IMG/VR virus record: IMGVR_UViG_3300017714_002439
Direction: 5' to 3' (one strand)
Length of the DNA stretch: 64,000 bases
From: a virus
The notes beneath the pieces are model-generated. The model was not told the origin of the DNA, made no database searches, and worked only from the letters and a program-made list of their open reading frames with translations. Positions 4,242-64,000 of the stretch are shown here, in pieces. Position 1 is the first letter of the stretch; each line of letters opens with the position of its first letter. A program made the position numbers and the translations under genes.

Positions 4242-5585
4242 ATGAGCAAAGCATTAATACTTCTTTCTAGCAATAAGAATGAAGTTAAAAAATTAGGCCT
4301 GGCAAAACATGTCGCACTAATTGACAAAGACGTAGATGTTGCATTTGCAAACAAAGACTACGATTACATTACACTAATTAATAAAGCACCAACAACACCA
4401 CAAGAAGCACGTGATATTGGTGGAAATATGTTTAAGAAGTATAAATCAAAAGCAACAGAAATTGTTTTTAATCTTCCTAGATTGAATGATGTTAAAGAAG
4501 GTGCAGCATTGGCATCATATGAGTTTACCAAATATAAAACAAAGCCTGAAGAAAACACACTACAAGTAGAAGATGCAGGCATTAGTGCAAGTGTTCATTT
4601 TGCACGTGATTTAGTTACAGAACCAGGTAATGCATTATATCCTGAAAAATATGCAGATCTTATTAATGAAACACTTACACCACATGGTGTCAAAGTTCGT
4701 GTAATTTATCAACGTGAATTAGAACGTATTGGTATGGATATGTTACTAAGTGTAGGACAAGGTAGTGAGAATAACAGTGCGGTTGTTGTAATGGAATGGA
4801 TGCATGGGTCAAAAGACGAACCACCAATTGCATTAGTAGGTAAAGGCGTTACATTTGACACAGGTGGTATTAGTTTAAAGCCAGGGCGTAACATGGGTGA
4901 TATGAAATACGACATGGGCGGTAGTGCCGCAGTTGTAGGAGCCATGCATGCTATTGCTGATAAGAAACTAAAGAAAAACGTAGTTGGTATTGTAGGTTTA
5001 GTAGAGAATATGCCAGACGGTAAAGCAATTAAACCAGGTGACGTTGTTAGATCACTAAGTGGACAATATGTTGAAAACCTAAACACAGATGCAGAAGGTA
5101 GACTTGTGCTAGGTGATATTCTAACATATGTGCAAAGTGAATACAAGCCGGGTGCTATTATTGATCTTGCTACACTAACAGGAGCCATTGTTGCAACACT
5201 AGGTAACGAAATGGCAGGACTGTTTACCAACAGTGGTGCTTTAGAACAAGCAATTATTACCAATGGCGAACTAGGTGGAGAAGGTTTTTATCGTATGCCA
5301 ATGGGCAAAAACTGGGCTAAGATGATTGACAGTGAAATTGCAGACTTTCAAAACATTGGTGGACCATATGGAGGTTCAACTACTGCCGCTGAATTCTTAT
5401 ACAAGTTTGTAGACAAGAAAACAGCATGGGCTCATTTAGACATTGCAGGTATGTGTTGGTCTAAAAGTGGAAATGCAACAACACCAAAAGGTGCAGTTGG
5501 GTTTGGCGTAAAAACATTATTCAACATTGTAGAAAACACAGATAGTTTTCAGTGGTTTGCAATAGAAGAAAAAATGTCATATTAA
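4242..5585 (+). CDS. pepA: Leucyl aminopeptidase (M17)
   Basis: GKGVTFDTGGISLKP, MKYDMGG and NTDAEGRL motifs. Confidence 0.95.
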   Translation: MSKALILLSSNKNEVKKLGLAKHVALIDKDVDVAFANKDYDYITLINKAPTTPQEARDIGGNMFKKYKSKATEIVFNLPRLNDVKEGAALASYEFTKYKTKPEENTLQVEDAGISASVHFARDLVTEPGNALYPEKYADLINETLTPHGVKVRVIYQRELERIGMDMLLSVGQGSENNSAVVVMEWMHGSKDEPPIALVGKGVTFDTGGISLKPGRNMGDMKYDMGGSAAVVGAMHAIADKKLKKNVVGIVGLVENMPDGKAIKPGDVVRSLSGQYVENLNTDAEGRLVLGDILTYVQSEYKPGAIIDLATLTGAIVATLGNEMAGLFTNSGALEQAIITNGELGGEGFYRMPMGKNWAKMIDSEIADFQNIGGPYGGSTTAAEFLYKFVDKKTAWAHLDIAGMCWSKSGNATTPKGAVGFGVKTLFNIVENTDSFQWFAIEEKMSY

Positions 5586-5587
5586 GG

Positions 5588-5616
5588 TTGACAACCAAGA
5601 TATCTTAGTGTATATT
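5588..5616 (+). promoter_or_regulatory. Sigma70-type promoter with AAGATATCTT palindrome
   Basis: TTGACA-17-TATATT; spacer ACCAAGATATCTTAGTG. Confidence 0.8.
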
Positions 5617-5622
5617 TAATTT

Positions 5623-5868
5623 ATGAAAATAAGATACTATCAAAAAATAGACGGCTGGCGTTGGATAGGATTTATACTAGCAATGGTAGGTGCGTTTATT
5701 CTTAGTAGCGGTGACCCAGATAGACAATGGATGGGTTGGGCAGTAGCTATATTTTCATGTAGTATTTGGATATACATGGGTATAAAAGATAAAGATATAC
5801 CACGAGCTTTAATGGAACTTATGTATATGTTATTGGCAATACGTGGTATTTGGAATTGGTTACAATGA
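5623..5868 (+). CDS. Small membrane protein (three hydrophobic segments)
   Basis: 81 aa, Trp-rich hydrophobic helices; no SD; ATG at the predicted TSS. Confidence 0.6.
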   Translation: MKIRYYQKIDGWRWIGFILAMVGAFILSSGDPDRQWMGWAVAIFSCSIWIYMGIKDKDIPRALMELMYMLLAIRGIWNWLQ

Positions 5869-6314: not shown

Positions 6315-6338
6315 CCAAAAAAAAATTAAAAAAGATAC

Positions 6339-6366
6339 AAAACCCTTGTTTTACAAGGGTTTTTTT
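6339..6366 (+). terminator. Intrinsic terminator
   Basis: AAAACCCTTGT-TTT-ACAAGGGTTTT plus T-run. Confidence 0.85.
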
Positions 6367-6389
6367 ATGAACTTTTTTTGCACAAAAGG

Positions 6390-6418
6390 TTGACAACCAA
6401 GACATCTTACTGTATACT
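6390..6418 (+). promoter_or_regulatory. Early sigma70-type promoter (repeat family)
   Basis: TTGACA-ACCAAGACATCTTACTG-TATACT. Confidence 0.85.
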
Positions 6419-6453
6419 GTAAGTATAGTTAATAAAAAAAGGAGTTAACAAAG

Positions 6454-6873: not shown

Positions 6874-6881
6874 ATAAAAGG

Positions 6882-6910
6882 TTGACAACCAAGACATCTT
6901 ACTATATACT
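6882..6910 (+). promoter_or_regulatory. Early sigma70-type promoter (repeat family)
   Basis: TTGACA-ACCAAGACATCTTACTA-TATACT, near-identical to the promoter at 6390. Confidence 0.85.
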
Positions 6911-6941
6911 GTAAGTATAAGTTAACAAAAAGGAGCATAAA

Positions 6942-14189: not shown

Positions 14190-15353
14190 ATGTCACATCC
14201 AACAGCATGTTCAAAAAGTTGGACAGACGTAAATATAAATTTCAAAAGAGGCAAAATGGGGCATTGCTGTAAAGCTGAATTGCATCCTTTCCCTAATGAA
14301 TATACAAAAGACTTTTTTACCAATAGTGAACTCATTCAAAAACGTAGACAAGACACTCTTAATGGTATTCAACATTCAGATTGTCAAACTTGTTGGGCTG
14401 ATGTTAACAATGGAATTACTTCGTTTAAGGATTTGATGAATGAATGGAATAATTTTGATCAGCCAATAGACAAGCCACACATTGAATACATTGAAGTAGA
14501 ATTAGATAATACATGCGATCTAAGTTGTTTATATTGTAATGCTGATCAAAGCAGTAAAATTGCACAAGAAGAAGGCATAATAGTTCCTGACATGACACGA
14601 CAAAAAGATATTGATATTTACAAAGAGTGGCTAAAAGATATAGTTAATAATTCTCCAAGAAATATAACTTTAGCCTTTATGGGTGGAGAACCTACAGCAA
14701 GTAAATTATTTTACGAACTGATTGAGTATATTGTAACATTAGATGCCAGTAAACTTACACTACAGGTAACAACAAATTGTAATACCAAAGATTTTCTATT
14801 TAATAAATTTTTAGATGCAATAGATAAAGTGGGCGGTGTAGAAATTAATATCAGTAATGAAAGTTTTAAAGAAGACAGTAAGCTAATTAGATATGGGTTA
14901 GATTGGGATAGATTTGAAAAAAATGTAAAGGCTTATGCATTACACAAAAAAGTAACCTTCATTAGTTTTGATACTACTATGAATATTCTTGCACTTCCTA
15001 CATATAGTAAATACATTCAATGGATTTTTGATACAATGTCAAAATATAATAAACCTTTTAGTATATCAGGCGATATGGTGGTTATTCCAAATGAGTTAGA
15101 TATAGCAATACTTCCAGCATCTTTTAAAACTTATATAGACCAGGCAATACAAATAGTTAACGAAAATCAATTACCTAATTGTATATCAAAAGATAAGATT
15201 TTATCATTTATGGAATCAGGAATAGATCGTGTTAGTTCTAATTATAAAGAAGATTATAAGAATATAGTTAGACAGTTCTTAGAACCAAAACAAAAATATA
15301 AAAATACAGATAAACTTATGAGGTTAATAGACCCACTAGGAGCAATACAATGA
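14190..15353 (+). CDS. Radical SAM protein with N-terminal Cys (twitch-like) domain
   Basis: CDLSCLYC, MGGEP; N-terminal C..GHCC..CQTC. Confidence 0.88.
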   Translation: MSHPTACSKSWTDVNINFKRGKMGHCCKAELHPFPNEYTKDFFTNSELIQKRRQDTLNGIQHSDCQTCWADVNNGITSFKDLMNEWNNFDQPIDKPHIEYIEVELDNTCDLSCLYCNADQSSKIAQEEGIIVPDMTRQKDIDIYKEWLKDIVNNSPRNITLAFMGGEPTASKLFYELIEYIVTLDASKLTLQVTTNCNTKDFLFNKFLDAIDKVGGVEINISNESFKEDSKLIRYGLDWDRFEKNVKAYALHKKVTFISFDTTMNILALPTYSKYIQWIFDTMSKYNKPFSISGDMVVIPNELDIAILPASFKTYIDQAIQIVNENQLPNCISKDKILSFMESGIDRVSSNYKEDYKNIVRQFLEPKQKYKNTDKLMRLIDPLGAIQ

Positions 15354-33375: not shown

Positions 33376-33585
33376 ATGGAAATAATTGGTATAACAACAA
33401 CTGTAGTATTTTTATCTATTGTATGGTTCTGCATAGTTTTATTAATAGCAAAGAAGCTTAAAATTAAGAAAGATGCACCGTTTCATAAGATAATAACATG
33501 CTTATTAGTAATGGGCCCTATTGGTTGGAGCATTATATTGGTTATTATTGCATACGATCTAGTAGATAAACTCACCAAAAAGTAA
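33376..33585 (+). CDS. Small two-TM membrane protein
   Basis: 69 aa, two hydrophobic helices. Confidence 0.6.
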   Translation: MEIIGITTTVVFLSIVWFCIVLLIAKKLKIKKDAPFHKIITCLLVMGPIGWSIILVIIAYDLVDKLTKK

Positions 33586-33606
33586 AAAAATAGTTAAAAA
33601 AGTTAT

Positions 33607-33633
33607 AAACCCTTGAAATACAAGGGTTTTTTT
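33607..33633 (+). terminator. Intrinsic terminator
   Basis: AAACCCTTG-AAATA-CAAGGGTTT plus T-run; same stem as 6339. Confidence 0.85.
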
Positions 33634-33646
33634 ATGGCCTTAAAGG

Positions 33647-33675
33647 TTGACAACCAAGAGCTCTTAGTGTATTAT
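33647..33675 (+). promoter_or_regulatory. Early sigma70-type promoter (repeat family)
   Basis: TTGACA-ACCAAGAGCTCTTAGTG-TATTAT. Confidence 0.85.
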
Positions 33676-33705
33676 AGTATATGTAAGTTAGAAAAAGGAG
33701 TATAA

Positions 33706-41606: not shown

Positions 41607-42767
41607 ATGATGGCTCAGACAGCATGTTCAAGTAGTTGGACAGACGTAAATATAGATTTCAAACGAGGCGTAGTAGGACATTGTTGTAAGTCTGTATACT
41701 ATGACTTCCCTGATGAATATACAGCTGAATTTTATAACAGTGAGCATATCCAAAAACGCAGACAGGATACGCTTAACGGCATTCAACACCCAGACTGCCA
41801 AACTTGTTGGAAGGATATTAACAATGGAGTTACTCCATTCAAAGACTGGACCAACAAGTGGAGTAATTTTGATAATGCTAAAGCTAAAGAGCCACAAATT
41901 TCAATGATCGAAGTAGATTTAGATAACACTTGCGATTTAAGTTGTTTATATTGCAGTGCTGATGCAAGTAGTAAAATTGCACAAGAAGAGGGTATAAAAG
42001 GTATTGATAAAACACGACGAAAAGATATTGACATTTTTAAAGAATGGTTAACGGAAACAATCAATAATTCCACAAAACTTATAACTGTTCACTTTCTAGG
42101 TGGAGAACCCACAGCGAGTAAATTATTCTACGAACTAATTGATCATATTGTAACATTAGATACTAGTAATGTCGCAATACAAATGACAACAAATTGTAAC
42201 AGCAAGGATTACCTTTTTAAGAAATTATTAAATGCAATGGATAAATCCCAATGCAAATGGGAAATTTGTATTAGTAATGAAAGTTTTAAAGAAGATAGTA
42301 ATCTAATTAGATATGGATTAAATTGGGATAGATTTGAACAAAACTTACGAGCCTATGCTTCAAATGAAAAAGTAAAATTTATCAGTTTTCATGCTACTAT
42401 GTGTAGTATTGCACTTCCTACGTTTCCCAAATATGTTCAATGGATTTTTGATACAATGTCAGACTATACTAAAAAATTCGGTATAATGGGCGATGCAGTG
42501 CGTTGGCCAGGTGAGTTGGATATAGCAATACTTCCAGAGTCTTTTAAAACTTATATGGATCAAGCAATACAACTAGTAAAAGAAAAACACTTACCTAATT
42601 GGGCTGACAAAAAAGAGACTTTAGTATTTTTTGAAGGAATAAAGACTCGTATTGGTTCTAACTATCAAGAAGATTATAAAAACACAGTTGAACAATTTTT
42701 AGTACCGAAACAAAAATATAAAAAGACAGATAAACTTATGAGACTAGTAGATCCATTAGGAGAATAA
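41607..42767 (+). CDS. Radical SAM protein, close paralogue of 14190
   Basis: CDLSCLYC, LGGEP; colinear with 14190. Confidence 0.9.
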   Translation: MMAQTACSSSWTDVNIDFKRGVVGHCCKSVYYDFPDEYTAEFYNSEHIQKRRQDTLNGIQHPDCQTCWKDINNGVTPFKDWTNKWSNFDNAKAKEPQISMIEVDLDNTCDLSCLYCSADASSKIAQEEGIKGIDKTRRKDIDIFKEWLTETINNSTKLITVHFLGGEPTASKLFYELIDHIVTLDTSNVAIQMTTNCNSKDYLFKKLLNAMDKSQCKWEICISNESFKEDSNLIRYGLNWDRFEQNLRAYASNEKVKFISFHATMCSIALPTFPKYVQWIFDTMSDYTKKFGIMGDAVRWPGELDIAILPESFKTYMDQAIQLVKEKHLPNWADKKETLVFFEGIKTRIGSNYQEDYKNTVEQFLVPKQKYKKTDKLMRLVDPLGE

Positions 42768-61439: not shown

Positions 61440-62819
61440 ATGAGATATCTATTAATTGCTGTCGCATTGCTGACATCAGCATGTGTTAATGCAACAAGCG
61501 GAGTAACTGAAACAAAATTCCAACCAGTTACTAAATCACAAGTTCCACTAATGGAACCAGTTCATAAAATTGACTATTCTTATTATCCAGATTCAGACTT
61601 TGTGAATTTAAAAATTCCAGAGAATTTTGAATACATAAAACCTACTACACTTAGATATCACATGGAAACAGGTGAATACCGTCATTACAGTAAACAATGG
61701 TTTGGAGTTGAAAAAAGATATAGAGGATGGGATTGTCATAATATTCTAAAAAACTTCAAAGTTAATATAGCAAAAACATTTAAGATGGGTGACGATGACT
61801 CATTCTTTAAAATTACTGTATGTCAAAATCATATAGCACCTATGACTCATTTAGATTACAAGTATATGGTGGAGAAAATGGCAGACATTATATTACATCA
61901 TGCAACAAATAGAAATGTAAAAGAGCCTTATTATATCAAAGACATTAACAATCCACAATATGCCAAGTATATGCTAATGGCAAACACTGCCGAGTTCTAC
62001 GCTGTATTCAAGGATTTGATGCCTTTAACACCGGAAGAACACGAGATAATTGTGGCATATTTTGACGAGATATTTATGGGTAATCCGTTTCATACTCAGC
62101 AACGTAGACAACAATGTGATGTTAATAATCCAAAAAGAATAGCTACTACTGTTAATAAACCTAATGGAAACAATGGCCAAACTGGTATAGGTCTGAATGG
62201 ATGTGGTTCTTATGCTTATACTATGGTAAATGCCTCATTGGCATATGCAATATCTACAAATAACAATAAACTATTTAAACGAGCAAAGATGAATTTAACA
62301 CACTTGCTTGGTTCGTTTGATGACAATGGTATTCAAGTAGCTCAAGCATCGCGTGGTGGAGTATCTTGGGGTTATCATACAGACATGACTCAGTATCTAG
62401 GATATACCACTGAAATACTAGCATCAATAGGATATGATTTCTTACAACACAAAATGCCACGTAGTGGAATTACAGTAAAAGAAGTTATGGATATGCATTG
62501 GGCTATTGTAGATGACCATACATTACTTGGAGTATATGCAAAGTATAACCAAGGTGTAATGAAACGAGATCAATGGAATGATGTTAAGAATCTACCAACC
62601 TTAAAAGTAACACAGATCATGCAAGAGCAAAAGCCTTGGAGACATATTGCATTAAGTAACCCACGTTACTTAAACGAGTATAGAGACGAAGTTACAACAA
62701 TATGGGGTAAAGAAGTGAACCTAAAGGAAGTAGCTAATAGTAAAAGTGGTGGAGCAAATAACTGGTATAATCAAGGATTTCCATCAGAATACTTATATAG
62801 AATTAACCAATCTAGGTAG
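61440..62819 (+). CDS. Lipoprotein, possible alginate-lyase-like alpha/alpha barrel
   Basis: LLTSAC lipobox; AYAISTNN.KLF..FDDNG..ASRG..WGYH resembles a polysaccharide lyase pattern; GGAG SD before 61440. Confidence 0.4.
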   Translation: MRYLLIAVALLTSACVNATSGVTETKFQPVTKSQVPLMEPVHKIDYSYYPDSDFVNLKIPENFEYIKPTTLRYHMETGEYRHYSKQWFGVEKRYRGWDCHNILKNFKVNIAKTFKMGDDDSFFKITVCQNHIAPMTHLDYKYMVEKMADIILHHATNRNVKEPYYIKDINNPQYAKYMLMANTAEFYAVFKDLMPLTPEEHEIIVAYFDEIFMGNPFHTQQRRQQCDVNNPKRIATTVNKPNGNNGQTGIGLNGCGSYAYTMVNASLAYAISTNNNKLFKRAKMNLTHLLGSFDDNGIQVAQASRGGVSWGYHTDMTQYLGYTTEILASIGYDFLQHKMPRSGITVKEVMDMHWAIVDDHTLLGVYAKYNQGVMKRDQWNDVKNLPTLKVTQIMQEQKPWRHIALSNPRYLNEYRDEVTTIWGKEVNLKEVANSKSGGANNWYNQGFPSEYLYRINQSR

Positions 62820-62888
62820 TTAACATACAATATATAGTGTCGTTAACCACTGTTATATCGGTTGATGGCACTATATTTTGTGAAAAGG

Positions 62889-62917
62889 TTGACAAGATCA
62901 GGTAAATATCATATAAT
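62889..62917 (+). promoter_or_regulatory. Sigma70-type promoter
   Basis: TTGACA-17-TATAAT. Confidence 0.88.
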
Positions 62918-62944
62918 AGTGTATATTTAATAAAGATTTAGTAG

Positions 62945-63014
62945 AGTTGATTTAAAGGAGTGGGCTCAGATGTGACCGCTGAAGCTCGAATCAACCATCA
63001 AAAATCGGTCACGT
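62945..63014 (+). ncRNA. Candidate pseudoknotted cis-regulatory RNA in a 5' leader
   Basis: Nested stems 62946-53/62988-95, 62958-61/62984-87, 62966-69/62979-82; loop 62970-78 complementary to 63006-14. Confidence 0.5.
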
Positions 63015-63031
63015 TAATATAGGAGAAATCT

Positions 63032-63253
63032 ATGTTAGACAAAATCTTAAGCGGCGTTCGTGGCGCTACAGAGGCTGGTGTATCGTTGATTGGTCTTGCT
63101 ATCGTTTTACAAGTTGTATTTGGTGGCTCAGTTCCTTTCTTAGGCGGTGATGTAATCGGCACTATCATCGGCATCGTGTCACAACTAGGCGCTGCTGGTT
63201 TAGTAGGTCTTATTTCTGCAGTTATTTTGTGGAAACTATTTACACGTGACTAA
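63032..63253 (+). CDS. Small Gly-rich membrane protein
   Basis: 73 aa, almost entirely hydrophobic with GxxxG patterns; AGGAG SD; own terminator. Confidence 0.8.
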   Translation: MLDKILSGVRGATEAGVSLIGLAIVLQVVFGGSVPFLGGDVIGTIIGIVSQLGAAGLVGLISAVILWKLFTRD

Positions 63254-63275
63254 TATTAATATATATTAATGTTTG

Positions 63276-63302
63276 AAAAACCCAGCAAATGCTGGGTTTT
63301 TT
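63276..63302 (+). terminator. Intrinsic terminator
   Basis: CCCAGC-AAAT-GCTGGG plus T-run. Confidence 0.85.
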
Positions 63303-63307
63303 AATGG

Positions 63308-63336
63308 TTGACAGATTGTATACAATAGTATATATT
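63308..63336 (+). promoter_or_regulatory. Sigma70-type promoter with 12-bp palindrome
   Basis: TTGACA-17-TATATT; ATTGTATACAAT. Confidence 0.8.
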
Positions 63337-63369
63337 ATATATAAACAACAATAAAAGAAAGGGCATATT

Positions 63370-63639
63370 ATGTCAAAATCTAAAAAAGCAGTAGGAACTA
63401 AGTTCTTTAAAGAAGGAACTCAAAACCAAAAAATCTTAGCTAAATTCTGGGGAACTGGTAAAACGTTTACTATGGATACTCTAAGAGAAAAAATGGATAT
63501 TGCTAGTCCAGGTGCTAGACTTTCAGAGCTGAAAGATCAAGGCTTTAATGTAAAAGCTACAGCGTCTGCAAATACTTCAGGTTTACAAGGTAGACCAACT
63601 ATGGAATATTCAATTCCTAGAAGAAGAACTTTTGCTTAA
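63370..63639 (+). CDS. Winged helix-turn-helix protein
   Basis: TQNQKIL..FTMDTL..IASPGARLSELKDQGFNV. Confidence 0.7.
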   Translation: MSKSKKAVGTKFFKEGTQNQKILAKFWGTGKTFTMDTLREKMDIASPGARLSELKDQGFNVKATASANTSGLQGRPTMEYSIPRRRTFA

Positions 63640-64000
63640 TCCAATTAAGCACATTATAACTTTAAATAAGCAGGGCCTAGCCCTGCTTATTTTTACTCTA
63701 TTATTCTTCTCACTTCCGTCAAAAGCAGATATATCAAAAGAACAGTTTGCATATGAAGTAAAAGGTTGTGTAGATGAGTTATATTACGATACAAACAAAT
63801 ATCCAATTTCTAAACAAATTCCAATAGAACTTATTATTGCTCAATCGGCACATGAAAGTGCATGGGGTAGCAGTAGATTTGCAGTAGAAGGAAATAATCT
63901 ATTTGGTGTTAGAACTTGGAATGAAAACGATTTACAAATAAAAGCAAAAGGGGCTCCTGATGCTCCTTGGGGTTTAAAGGTATATAATAATTGGTGTGAA
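63632..64000 (+). CDS. Glucosaminidase/Bax-like peptidoglycan hydrolase (3' truncated by window end, start uncertain)
   Basis: LIIAQSAHESAWGSSRFAVEGNNLFGV; signal-like N-terminus; open frame from TTG 63632. Confidence 0.8.
   Translation, partial: MLNPIKHIITLNKQGLALLIFTLLFFSLPSKADISKEQFAYEVKGCVDELYYDTNKYPISKQIPIELIIAQSAHESAWGSSRFAVEGNNLFGVRTWNENDLQIKAKGAPDAPWGLKVYNNWCE
63665..63694 (+). terminator. Terminator-like hairpin overlapping the start region of the hydrolase frame
   Basis: AATAAGCAGGGC-CTA-GCCCTGCTTATT plus TTT. Confidence 0.7.

Follow-up and report, generated by a model that had tools for sequence, protein, structure and literature searches.

Comparative analysis of related phage contigs identifies the leader ahead of a 73-aa membrane-protein ORF as a real, evolutionarily conserved RNA pseudoknot. 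The ORF lies in a 64,000-nt stretch of viral DNA (IMG/VR record IMGVR_UViG_3300017714_002439), which is called the window below. The long ORFs of the window are all located on the + strand. They include a T4-type family B DNA polymerase and a DNA ligase, and the source phage is assigned to the T4-like polymerase group. The closest cultured polymerases are those of the giant phages Phosso and Atu_ph07 (48-50% identity). Related IMG/VR contigs of 109-184 kb are estimated by CheckV to be only 30-51% complete, which implies genomes of ~350 kb. From these polymerase relatives and the low completeness of the contigs we infer that the window is a fragment of an uncultured marine giant myophage. Searches of the locus and the ORF with blastn and tblastn against 50,697 phage records gave no match; none of the cultured relatives thus has it.

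Elsewhere in the window, a promoter-bearing 56-nt repeat with a TTGACA box and a conserved spacer occurs four times (5582-5637, 6384-6439, 6876-6931 and 33641-33696), and two of the four copies come after near-identical terminator hairpins (6317-6374 and 33584-33641). The window also holds a pair of paralogous genes, 14202-15342 and 41619-42762, which lie 27.4 kb apart and share 77-79% DNA identity over ~1.1 kb.

The earlier note on this DNA described a transcription unit made up of a promoter, a leader of about 108 nt, a Shine-Dalgarno (SD) sequence, the 73-aa ORF and a terminator, and each of these parts is found in the sequence. The leader is also richer in G+C than its surroundings, as had been observed (46% in the core at 62946-63014, 35% in the window and 30% in the upstream flank). 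The unit and the predicted RNA elements within it are composed of the following features.

62889-62917, + strand: sigma-70-type promoter with a -35 box TTGACA (62889-62894), a 17-nt spacer and a -10 box TATAAT (62912-62917); score 12/12
near 62924, + strand: inferred transcription start, which gives the leader of ~108 nt
62946-62953, + strand: 5' strand of P1, pairing with 62988-62995
62954-62961, + strand: J1/2, an 8-nt purine-rich bulge with an SD-like AGGAG, unpaired in the RNAalifold consensus
62962-62969, + strand: 5' strand of P2, pairing with 62979-62987
62970-62971, + strand: L1, two variable loop bases (AU, UU, AA or UA; 4 nt in L108), often unpaired with 63013-63014
62972-62978, + strand: 5' strand of the pseudoknot core in the P2 loop, pairing with 63006-63012
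62979-62987, + strand: 3' strand of P2, in which the A at 62983 is bulged; every lineage retains this bulge as A or AA
62988-62995, + strand: 3' strand of P1, directly abutting P2
62996-63005, + strand: A-rich linker, part of L3, whose sequence and length (17-25 nt) vary among lineages
63006-63012, + strand: 3' strand of the pseudoknot core, 24-31 nt beyond the P2 loop
63015-63037, + strand: predicted hairpin at the ribosome-binding site (RBS), directly after the pseudoknot, pairing half of the SD and the AUG
63021-63025, + strand: SD sequence AGGAG, invariant in all relatives except the vent-type leaders L242-L251
63032-63253, + strand: Gly-rich 73-aa membrane ORF with its ATG at 63032, the putatively regulated gene
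63281-63302, + strand: intrinsic terminator with a 6-bp G+C-rich stem (63281-63296), a 4-nt loop and a T6 run (63297-63302)

The cassette is followed by a winged-helix HTH_39 gene (63370-63639) with a near-consensus promoter of its own (63308-63336). This gene overlaps by 8 nt with one for an endolysin-type glucosaminidase (63632-64000).

The 9-nt loop at 62970-62978 is complementary to 63006-63014 with one G-U pair, as claimed in the earlier note, and the claimed helices are present within one base of where they had been placed, P1 (62946-62953/62988-62995) running one base to the right of its proposed start. Complements of 9 bp with at most one G-U pair and 12-60 nt apart occur 119 times on this strand of the window. 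In an A+T-rich window, this frequency means that the pairing seen in a single sequence is not beyond chance, and relatives had to decide. The single-sequence fold is moderately better than those of shuffled sequences (z = -2.4). A leader-closing helix in the minimum free energy fold, formed by the 5' end and the AUG region, is invariant in the window clade, matches imperfectly in L149 and is unsupported.

Upstream DNA of ORF homologues was gathered from IMG/VR, from JGI and ENA metagenomes and from contigs encoding particular homologues; these three routes choose leaders by protein and not by RNA. One motif pattern scan of IMG/VR added the L149 lineage and further members of the L103 clade. 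The sample holds 30 distinct window-type leaders from about seven lineages of uncultured marine phage contigs: the window clade, L149, the L103 clade, L108, L241, L121 with L262, and L006 with L098, L264, L266 and L268. Covariation, for which the earlier note had proposed to compare the leaders of homologous ORFs, is present in P1, P2 and the pseudoknot.

The core of the pseudoknot is a helix of 7 bp. Six of its seven positions are paired in all 30 distinct leaders, 10 of which (L149 and the L103-clade loci L144-L186) came from a pattern that demanded the pseudoknot partner, and the terminal pair is G-A in three. A downstream partner is located within 50 nt in 32/32 distinct sequence contexts that bear the hairpin. 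Apart from the terminal pair in the three leaders, the 14 bases of the pseudoknot show pair-preserving transitions only, in lineages whose ORFs are ~74% identical in DNA and whose flanks and linkers are unalignable. At 62974:63010, 21 leaders have G-C, 5 have G-U and 4 have A-U. The four with A-U are L241, which is closest to L108, and the L006-like L264, L266 and L268; the A-U pair thus reads as having arisen twice independently. 62974:63010 is the only pseudoknot pair with a full two-sided change; three more positions vary on one side, each time to a wobble pair. The pairing of loop and downstream segment thus stands for the conserved 7-bp core, but not for the full 9 bp claimed earlier, as the L1 bases extend the helix to this length in the window only and the two outer pairs are not conserved.

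The loop lengths (2-4 nt for L1, 0 for L2 and 17-25 nt for the mostly A-rich L3) fit a classical H-type pseudoknot, in which P2 and the pseudoknot helix could stack coaxially. Frequent G-U pairs mean that the fold can form only in + strand RNA, and the varying spacing between the pseudoknot strands argues against a DNA operator.

RNAalifold on its own predicts P1 and a continuous P2. Three pairs of P2 change on both sides across lineages, and 98.9% of cells are paired. A separate P2 made of GAGT/GCTC is disfavoured: L231 and L149 disrupt it, and a continuous hairpin is the better fit; in L231 a G-U pair of the continuous hairpin becomes G-C while GAGT/GCTC breaks. Only the window clade and L149 have P1. 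An unfitted MAFFT alignment shows covariation at four P1 positions (GC/AU, AU/GU/GC, UA/UG/CG and UG/UA), and P1 of L149 contributes another variant (GC), a fifth. The helices proposed in the earlier note are therefore borne out for P1 with its four covarying positions, but its separate P2 and P3 are replaced by one continuous, bulged 8-bp hairpin. J1/2 is nearly invariant in the window clade, and a similar segment is found in L149 and in the vent-type leaders L242-L251.

Several further candidates within the leader were rejected. A leader peptide encoded by a GTG frame through the loop to a TAG at the SD is broken by a 1-nt linker indel in L001 relative to the window. An AUG-UGA start-stop in the loop is changed to AAG, GAG or UAG in several lineages. 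Neither complementarity of the loop to the 3' tail of 16S rRNA nor a T-loop-like string at the P2/P1 junction is conserved.

The sigma-70 promoter is kept in the window clade and L149. It is replaced by a late-type TAAATA motif in the L108, L241, L121 and L006 lineages, in which the leaders are ~125-245 nt long and retain P2 and the pseudoknot without P1. Across these lineages the pseudoknot module is promoter-independent, being kept under early-type as well as late-type promoters. TAAATA is also present in the L103 clade, where the gene seems to be late, in contrast to the early-type (sigma-70) expression suggested for the window clade. In this clade (L103:560-600 and equivalents in L144, L156, L172, L174 and L186) the motif is located in the loop of a 7-bp inverted repeat, which sits just 5' of the pseudoknot hairpin.

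The SD begins 8-17 nt past the pseudoknot, and in every lineage the sequence between the pseudoknot and the AUG is rich in A and U. In the window, the RBS hairpin has a predicted energy of -5.0 kcal/mol, with the AUG paired at a probability of ~0.99. The L103 clade retains this hairpin, as does L149, where two one-sided changes leave the pairing intact; the L108, L121 and L006 lineages lack it. Given the variable distance between pseudoknot and SD and the lack of the RBS hairpin in three lineages, a single uniform mechanism at the RBS is not evident. Neither a conserved terminator nor a conserved SD-sequestering alternative pairing was seen in the leaders of the compared lineages.

The Rfam 15 covariance models give no match at gathering score anywhere in the window. 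At E values up to 10, the region 62800-63400 yields only noise, with weak matches on the terminator hairpin, and the PrfA thermoregulator scores 18.6 bits there against a threshold of 88. Scans of the leaders of 15 related loci return nothing on the element. The earlier note had recognized no riboswitch or ribozyme, and the Rfam models agree, including those of SAM-II, SAM-V, preQ1-I/II/III, fluoride, guanidine-III, pistol, hatchet and twister. Judged against Rfam, and not against the 10,006 candidate viral structured RNAs reported in PMC10690425, the leader is of a known class of element but represents a new RNA family.

A covariance model of the leader finds one good match in the window and one per related phage contig (109-184 kb), and 9/9 genuine matches of the IMG/VR pattern scan precede the 73-aa ORF family. 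By these searches the motif is gene-specific: it precedes no gene other than the 73-aa ORF, and not all members of the ORF family have it. In L206-L215, an ORF up to 96% identical in protein (P0006) is preceded by a wholly different leader in an intergenic gap of ~430 nt. This P0006-type leader consists of a 4-bp hairpin with a 6-nt loop starting with CG, followed by an A-rich and then U-rich tail before the SD. Such hairpin-plus-tail leaders are the majority type, with 38 distinct variants and five covarying versions of the stem (for example L007:1730-1816; most of L007-L077, L083-L095, L206-L215 and L252-L261). A search for a pseudoknot partner of the 6-nt loop in these type B/C leaders came up empty, and the examples scanned have no Rfam match.

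In a third leader module, the hairpin has a 13-14-nt loop on a 4-bp stem that covaries, and a conserved A5-GCGU-purine-GGA string comes next. This module is the sole element ahead of the SD in L002 (2471-2561) and lies in tandem 5' of the pseudoknot in the L121 (L121:1330-1385) and L006 (L006:2830-2885) lineages. The fourth leader, found in L242-L251 from hydrothermal-vent metagenomes, is composite. A covarying enclosing stem with GGTCACC is followed by the hairpin-plus-tail module and by an SD that reads AGAGG; the stem also encloses a purine-rich 10-mer identical to one in the J1/2-P2 region of L149. The leader modules have evidently been exchanged by recombination around a constant SD and ORF, as far as their distribution over these loci indicates. 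In the long-leader version, a closing stem AACGTAA/TTACGTT was rejected in favour of a local covarying 5-bp hairpin, which explains the data better, and a CGGT/ACCG hairpin is limited to one lineage.

Some loci with hairpin-plus-tail leaders carry RNA genes next to the ORF. A permuted (two-piece) tmRNA gene is located directly 3' of the ORF in six loci scanned, all of which have this leader type (L007:2070-2271, L065:1134-1354, L034:3287-3489, L029:1750-1988, L013:3260-3458 and L010:3254-3561). For one of these genes there is a match to the alphaproteobacterial tmRNA model as well, a hint at the host group. No tmRNA match occurs in the window. A tRNA gene (L085:1005-1076) lies ~425 nt 5' of the ORF at a further hairpin-plus-tail locus.

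The ORF itself is strongly conserved and, as its codons indicate, under purifying selection. It has 347 homologues at E <= 0.001, and synonymous codon differences exceed non-synonymous ones in every comparison (33 vs 3, for example). Pfam, PHROG and NCBIfam contain no family that matches the hydrophobic 73-aa product. A scan of cellular genomes found the ORF in one MAG contig only; it is otherwise viral. The neighbouring genes differ between lineages. In the window lineage, a single gene separates the ORF from that of a glucosaminidase-type hydrolase, and in the L006 lineage the ORF is directly followed by a SleB-type hydrolase. The presence of cell-wall hydrolase genes nearby in two lineages provides a lead, not a finding, towards a lysis-related role.

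On balance, we think that the leader acts in cis on the mRNA of the 73-aa ORF, through a gene-specific pseudoknot of the H type by which translation or the stability of the transcript is controlled. P2, extended by P1 in the window clade, would offer a loop of which seven bases pair downstream. The resulting knot would occupy the ribosome standby region and, in the window clade, could stack on the RBS hairpin. The fold may determine how fast 30S subunits load, and it probably shields the 5' portion of the transcript. In this way it could fix how much of the membrane protein is made from a very strong consensus promoter, or when. Sequence constraint is far tighter on the pseudoknot helix than on P1, and constraint beyond structural need suggests that a protein or a ligand specifically reads the helix. 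This reader may be an RNA-binding protein of the phage or of its host.

If a protein is the reader, the leader might be an operator in the manner of T4 gene 32, where the protein binds the knot and spreads over or blocks the A/U-rich RBS, giving timed repression. The layout, in which a pseudoknot gives way to unstructured A/U-rich sequence as far as the SD, would suit this, as would the constrained helix, the T4-like polymerase group of the phage and the retention of the module under promoters of both types. However, no candidate binding protein was found, the neighbouring genes vary by lineage, and the regulated product is a membrane protein and hence not an autoregulator, which leaves such an operator a possible but rather doubtful reading. 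With a ligand as the reader, the pseudoknot, bulged A and junction would form the aptamer of a metabolite or ion riboswitch. The ligand would stabilize the knot and, through stacking on the RBS hairpin or occupation of the standby region, alter translation of a ligand-handling membrane protein. A near-invariant helix and conserved bulge together with freely covarying peripheral helices is the typical pattern of an aptamer core, and the structured candidate aptamer, supported by covariation, lies within the 5' UTR of a gene for a membrane protein. Three lineages have another conserved hairpin module in tandem upstream, and riboswitch use has been reported in marine myophages (PMC9004378). On the other hand, the motif precedes one gene family, and only part of it, rather than several genes of a pathway. 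The leaders share no terminator or SD-sequestering alternative, Rfam offers no match, and the ORF has neither a family nor a predicted transport function that would point to a ligand. The restriction to one gene, the lack of a conserved platform and the interchange with unrelated leaders make a ligand less likely than a protein, and we regard a riboswitch as unlikely. The earlier note's description of a riboswitch-like RNA thus holds as far as a structured, covarying and pseudoknotted RNA is concerned, but the riboswitch reading itself is not supported for a motif that is tied to one gene family, is replaced by other leaders on near-identical copies of the gene and has no conserved platform. 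An undescribed riboswitch class of uncultured marine giant phages, which would time a possibly lysis-related membrane protein via a host metabolite or ion, is similarly improbable.

Two further explanations carry much less weight. The pairing might have no function of its own and be a chance complement, a hitch-hiking sequence or an inverted repeat acting at the DNA level. Complements of nine bases are frequent on this strand, and because the lineages are related, conservation is in part inherited. Yet the pseudoknot changes in a pair-preserving manner despite its unalignable flanks, compensatory changes occur in P1 and P2 as well as in the pseudoknot, and G-U intermediates and variable spacing speak against a DNA site, so that we consider an absence of function highly improbable. 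Even less credible is a small self-cleaving ribozyme. In the core of the pistol ribozyme a hairpin loop pairs with a 3' segment, and the fold described here may be said to resemble it in this respect, but no ribozyme model matches even at E values up to 10, and beyond the pseudoknot there is no second or third helix, just an A-rich spacer and the SD.

A cis-regulatory pseudoknot on this mRNA, which remains our preferred reading, would add a compact element of ~70 nt with covariation support to the poorly catalogued cis-regulatory RNAs of phages. Few small genes in this group of uncultured marine giant phages are as conserved as its putative target. With at least four interchangeable structured leader modules on one gene, the family represents a natural experiment in the swapping of post-transcriptional control. 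If a protein or ligand partner were found, the leader would be a new RNA sensor tied to an unknown membrane function, possibly the timing of lysis.

The compact H-type fold in the 5' UTR is shared with the SAM-II (RF00521), SAM-V (RF01826), preQ1-II, fluoride (RF01734) and guanidine-III (RF01763) riboswitches, and a conserved pseudoknot helix and an A-rich third loop are further features in common with pseudoknot-type riboswitches. Several of these riboswitches are found upstream of genes for membrane proteins, and streamlined marine bacteria make use of some. In contrast to these classes, the leader described here matches no covariance model, has its SD outside the pseudoknot and is tied to one phage gene family instead of a pathway. 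The gene 32 leader of T4, T2 and RB69 differs in other ways. There is no sequence relationship, and in our leader the pseudoknot is not at the extreme 5' end and is enclosed in the window clade by the extra helix P1; the product is a 73-aa membrane protein and not a single-strand-binding protein, which makes autogenous control implausible. In its architecture, however, the gene 32 leader is alike: both 5' leaders, on mRNAs of T4-type phages, carry a gene-specific, single-copy H-type pseudoknot, and the A/U-rich sequence from there to the RBS is unstructured.
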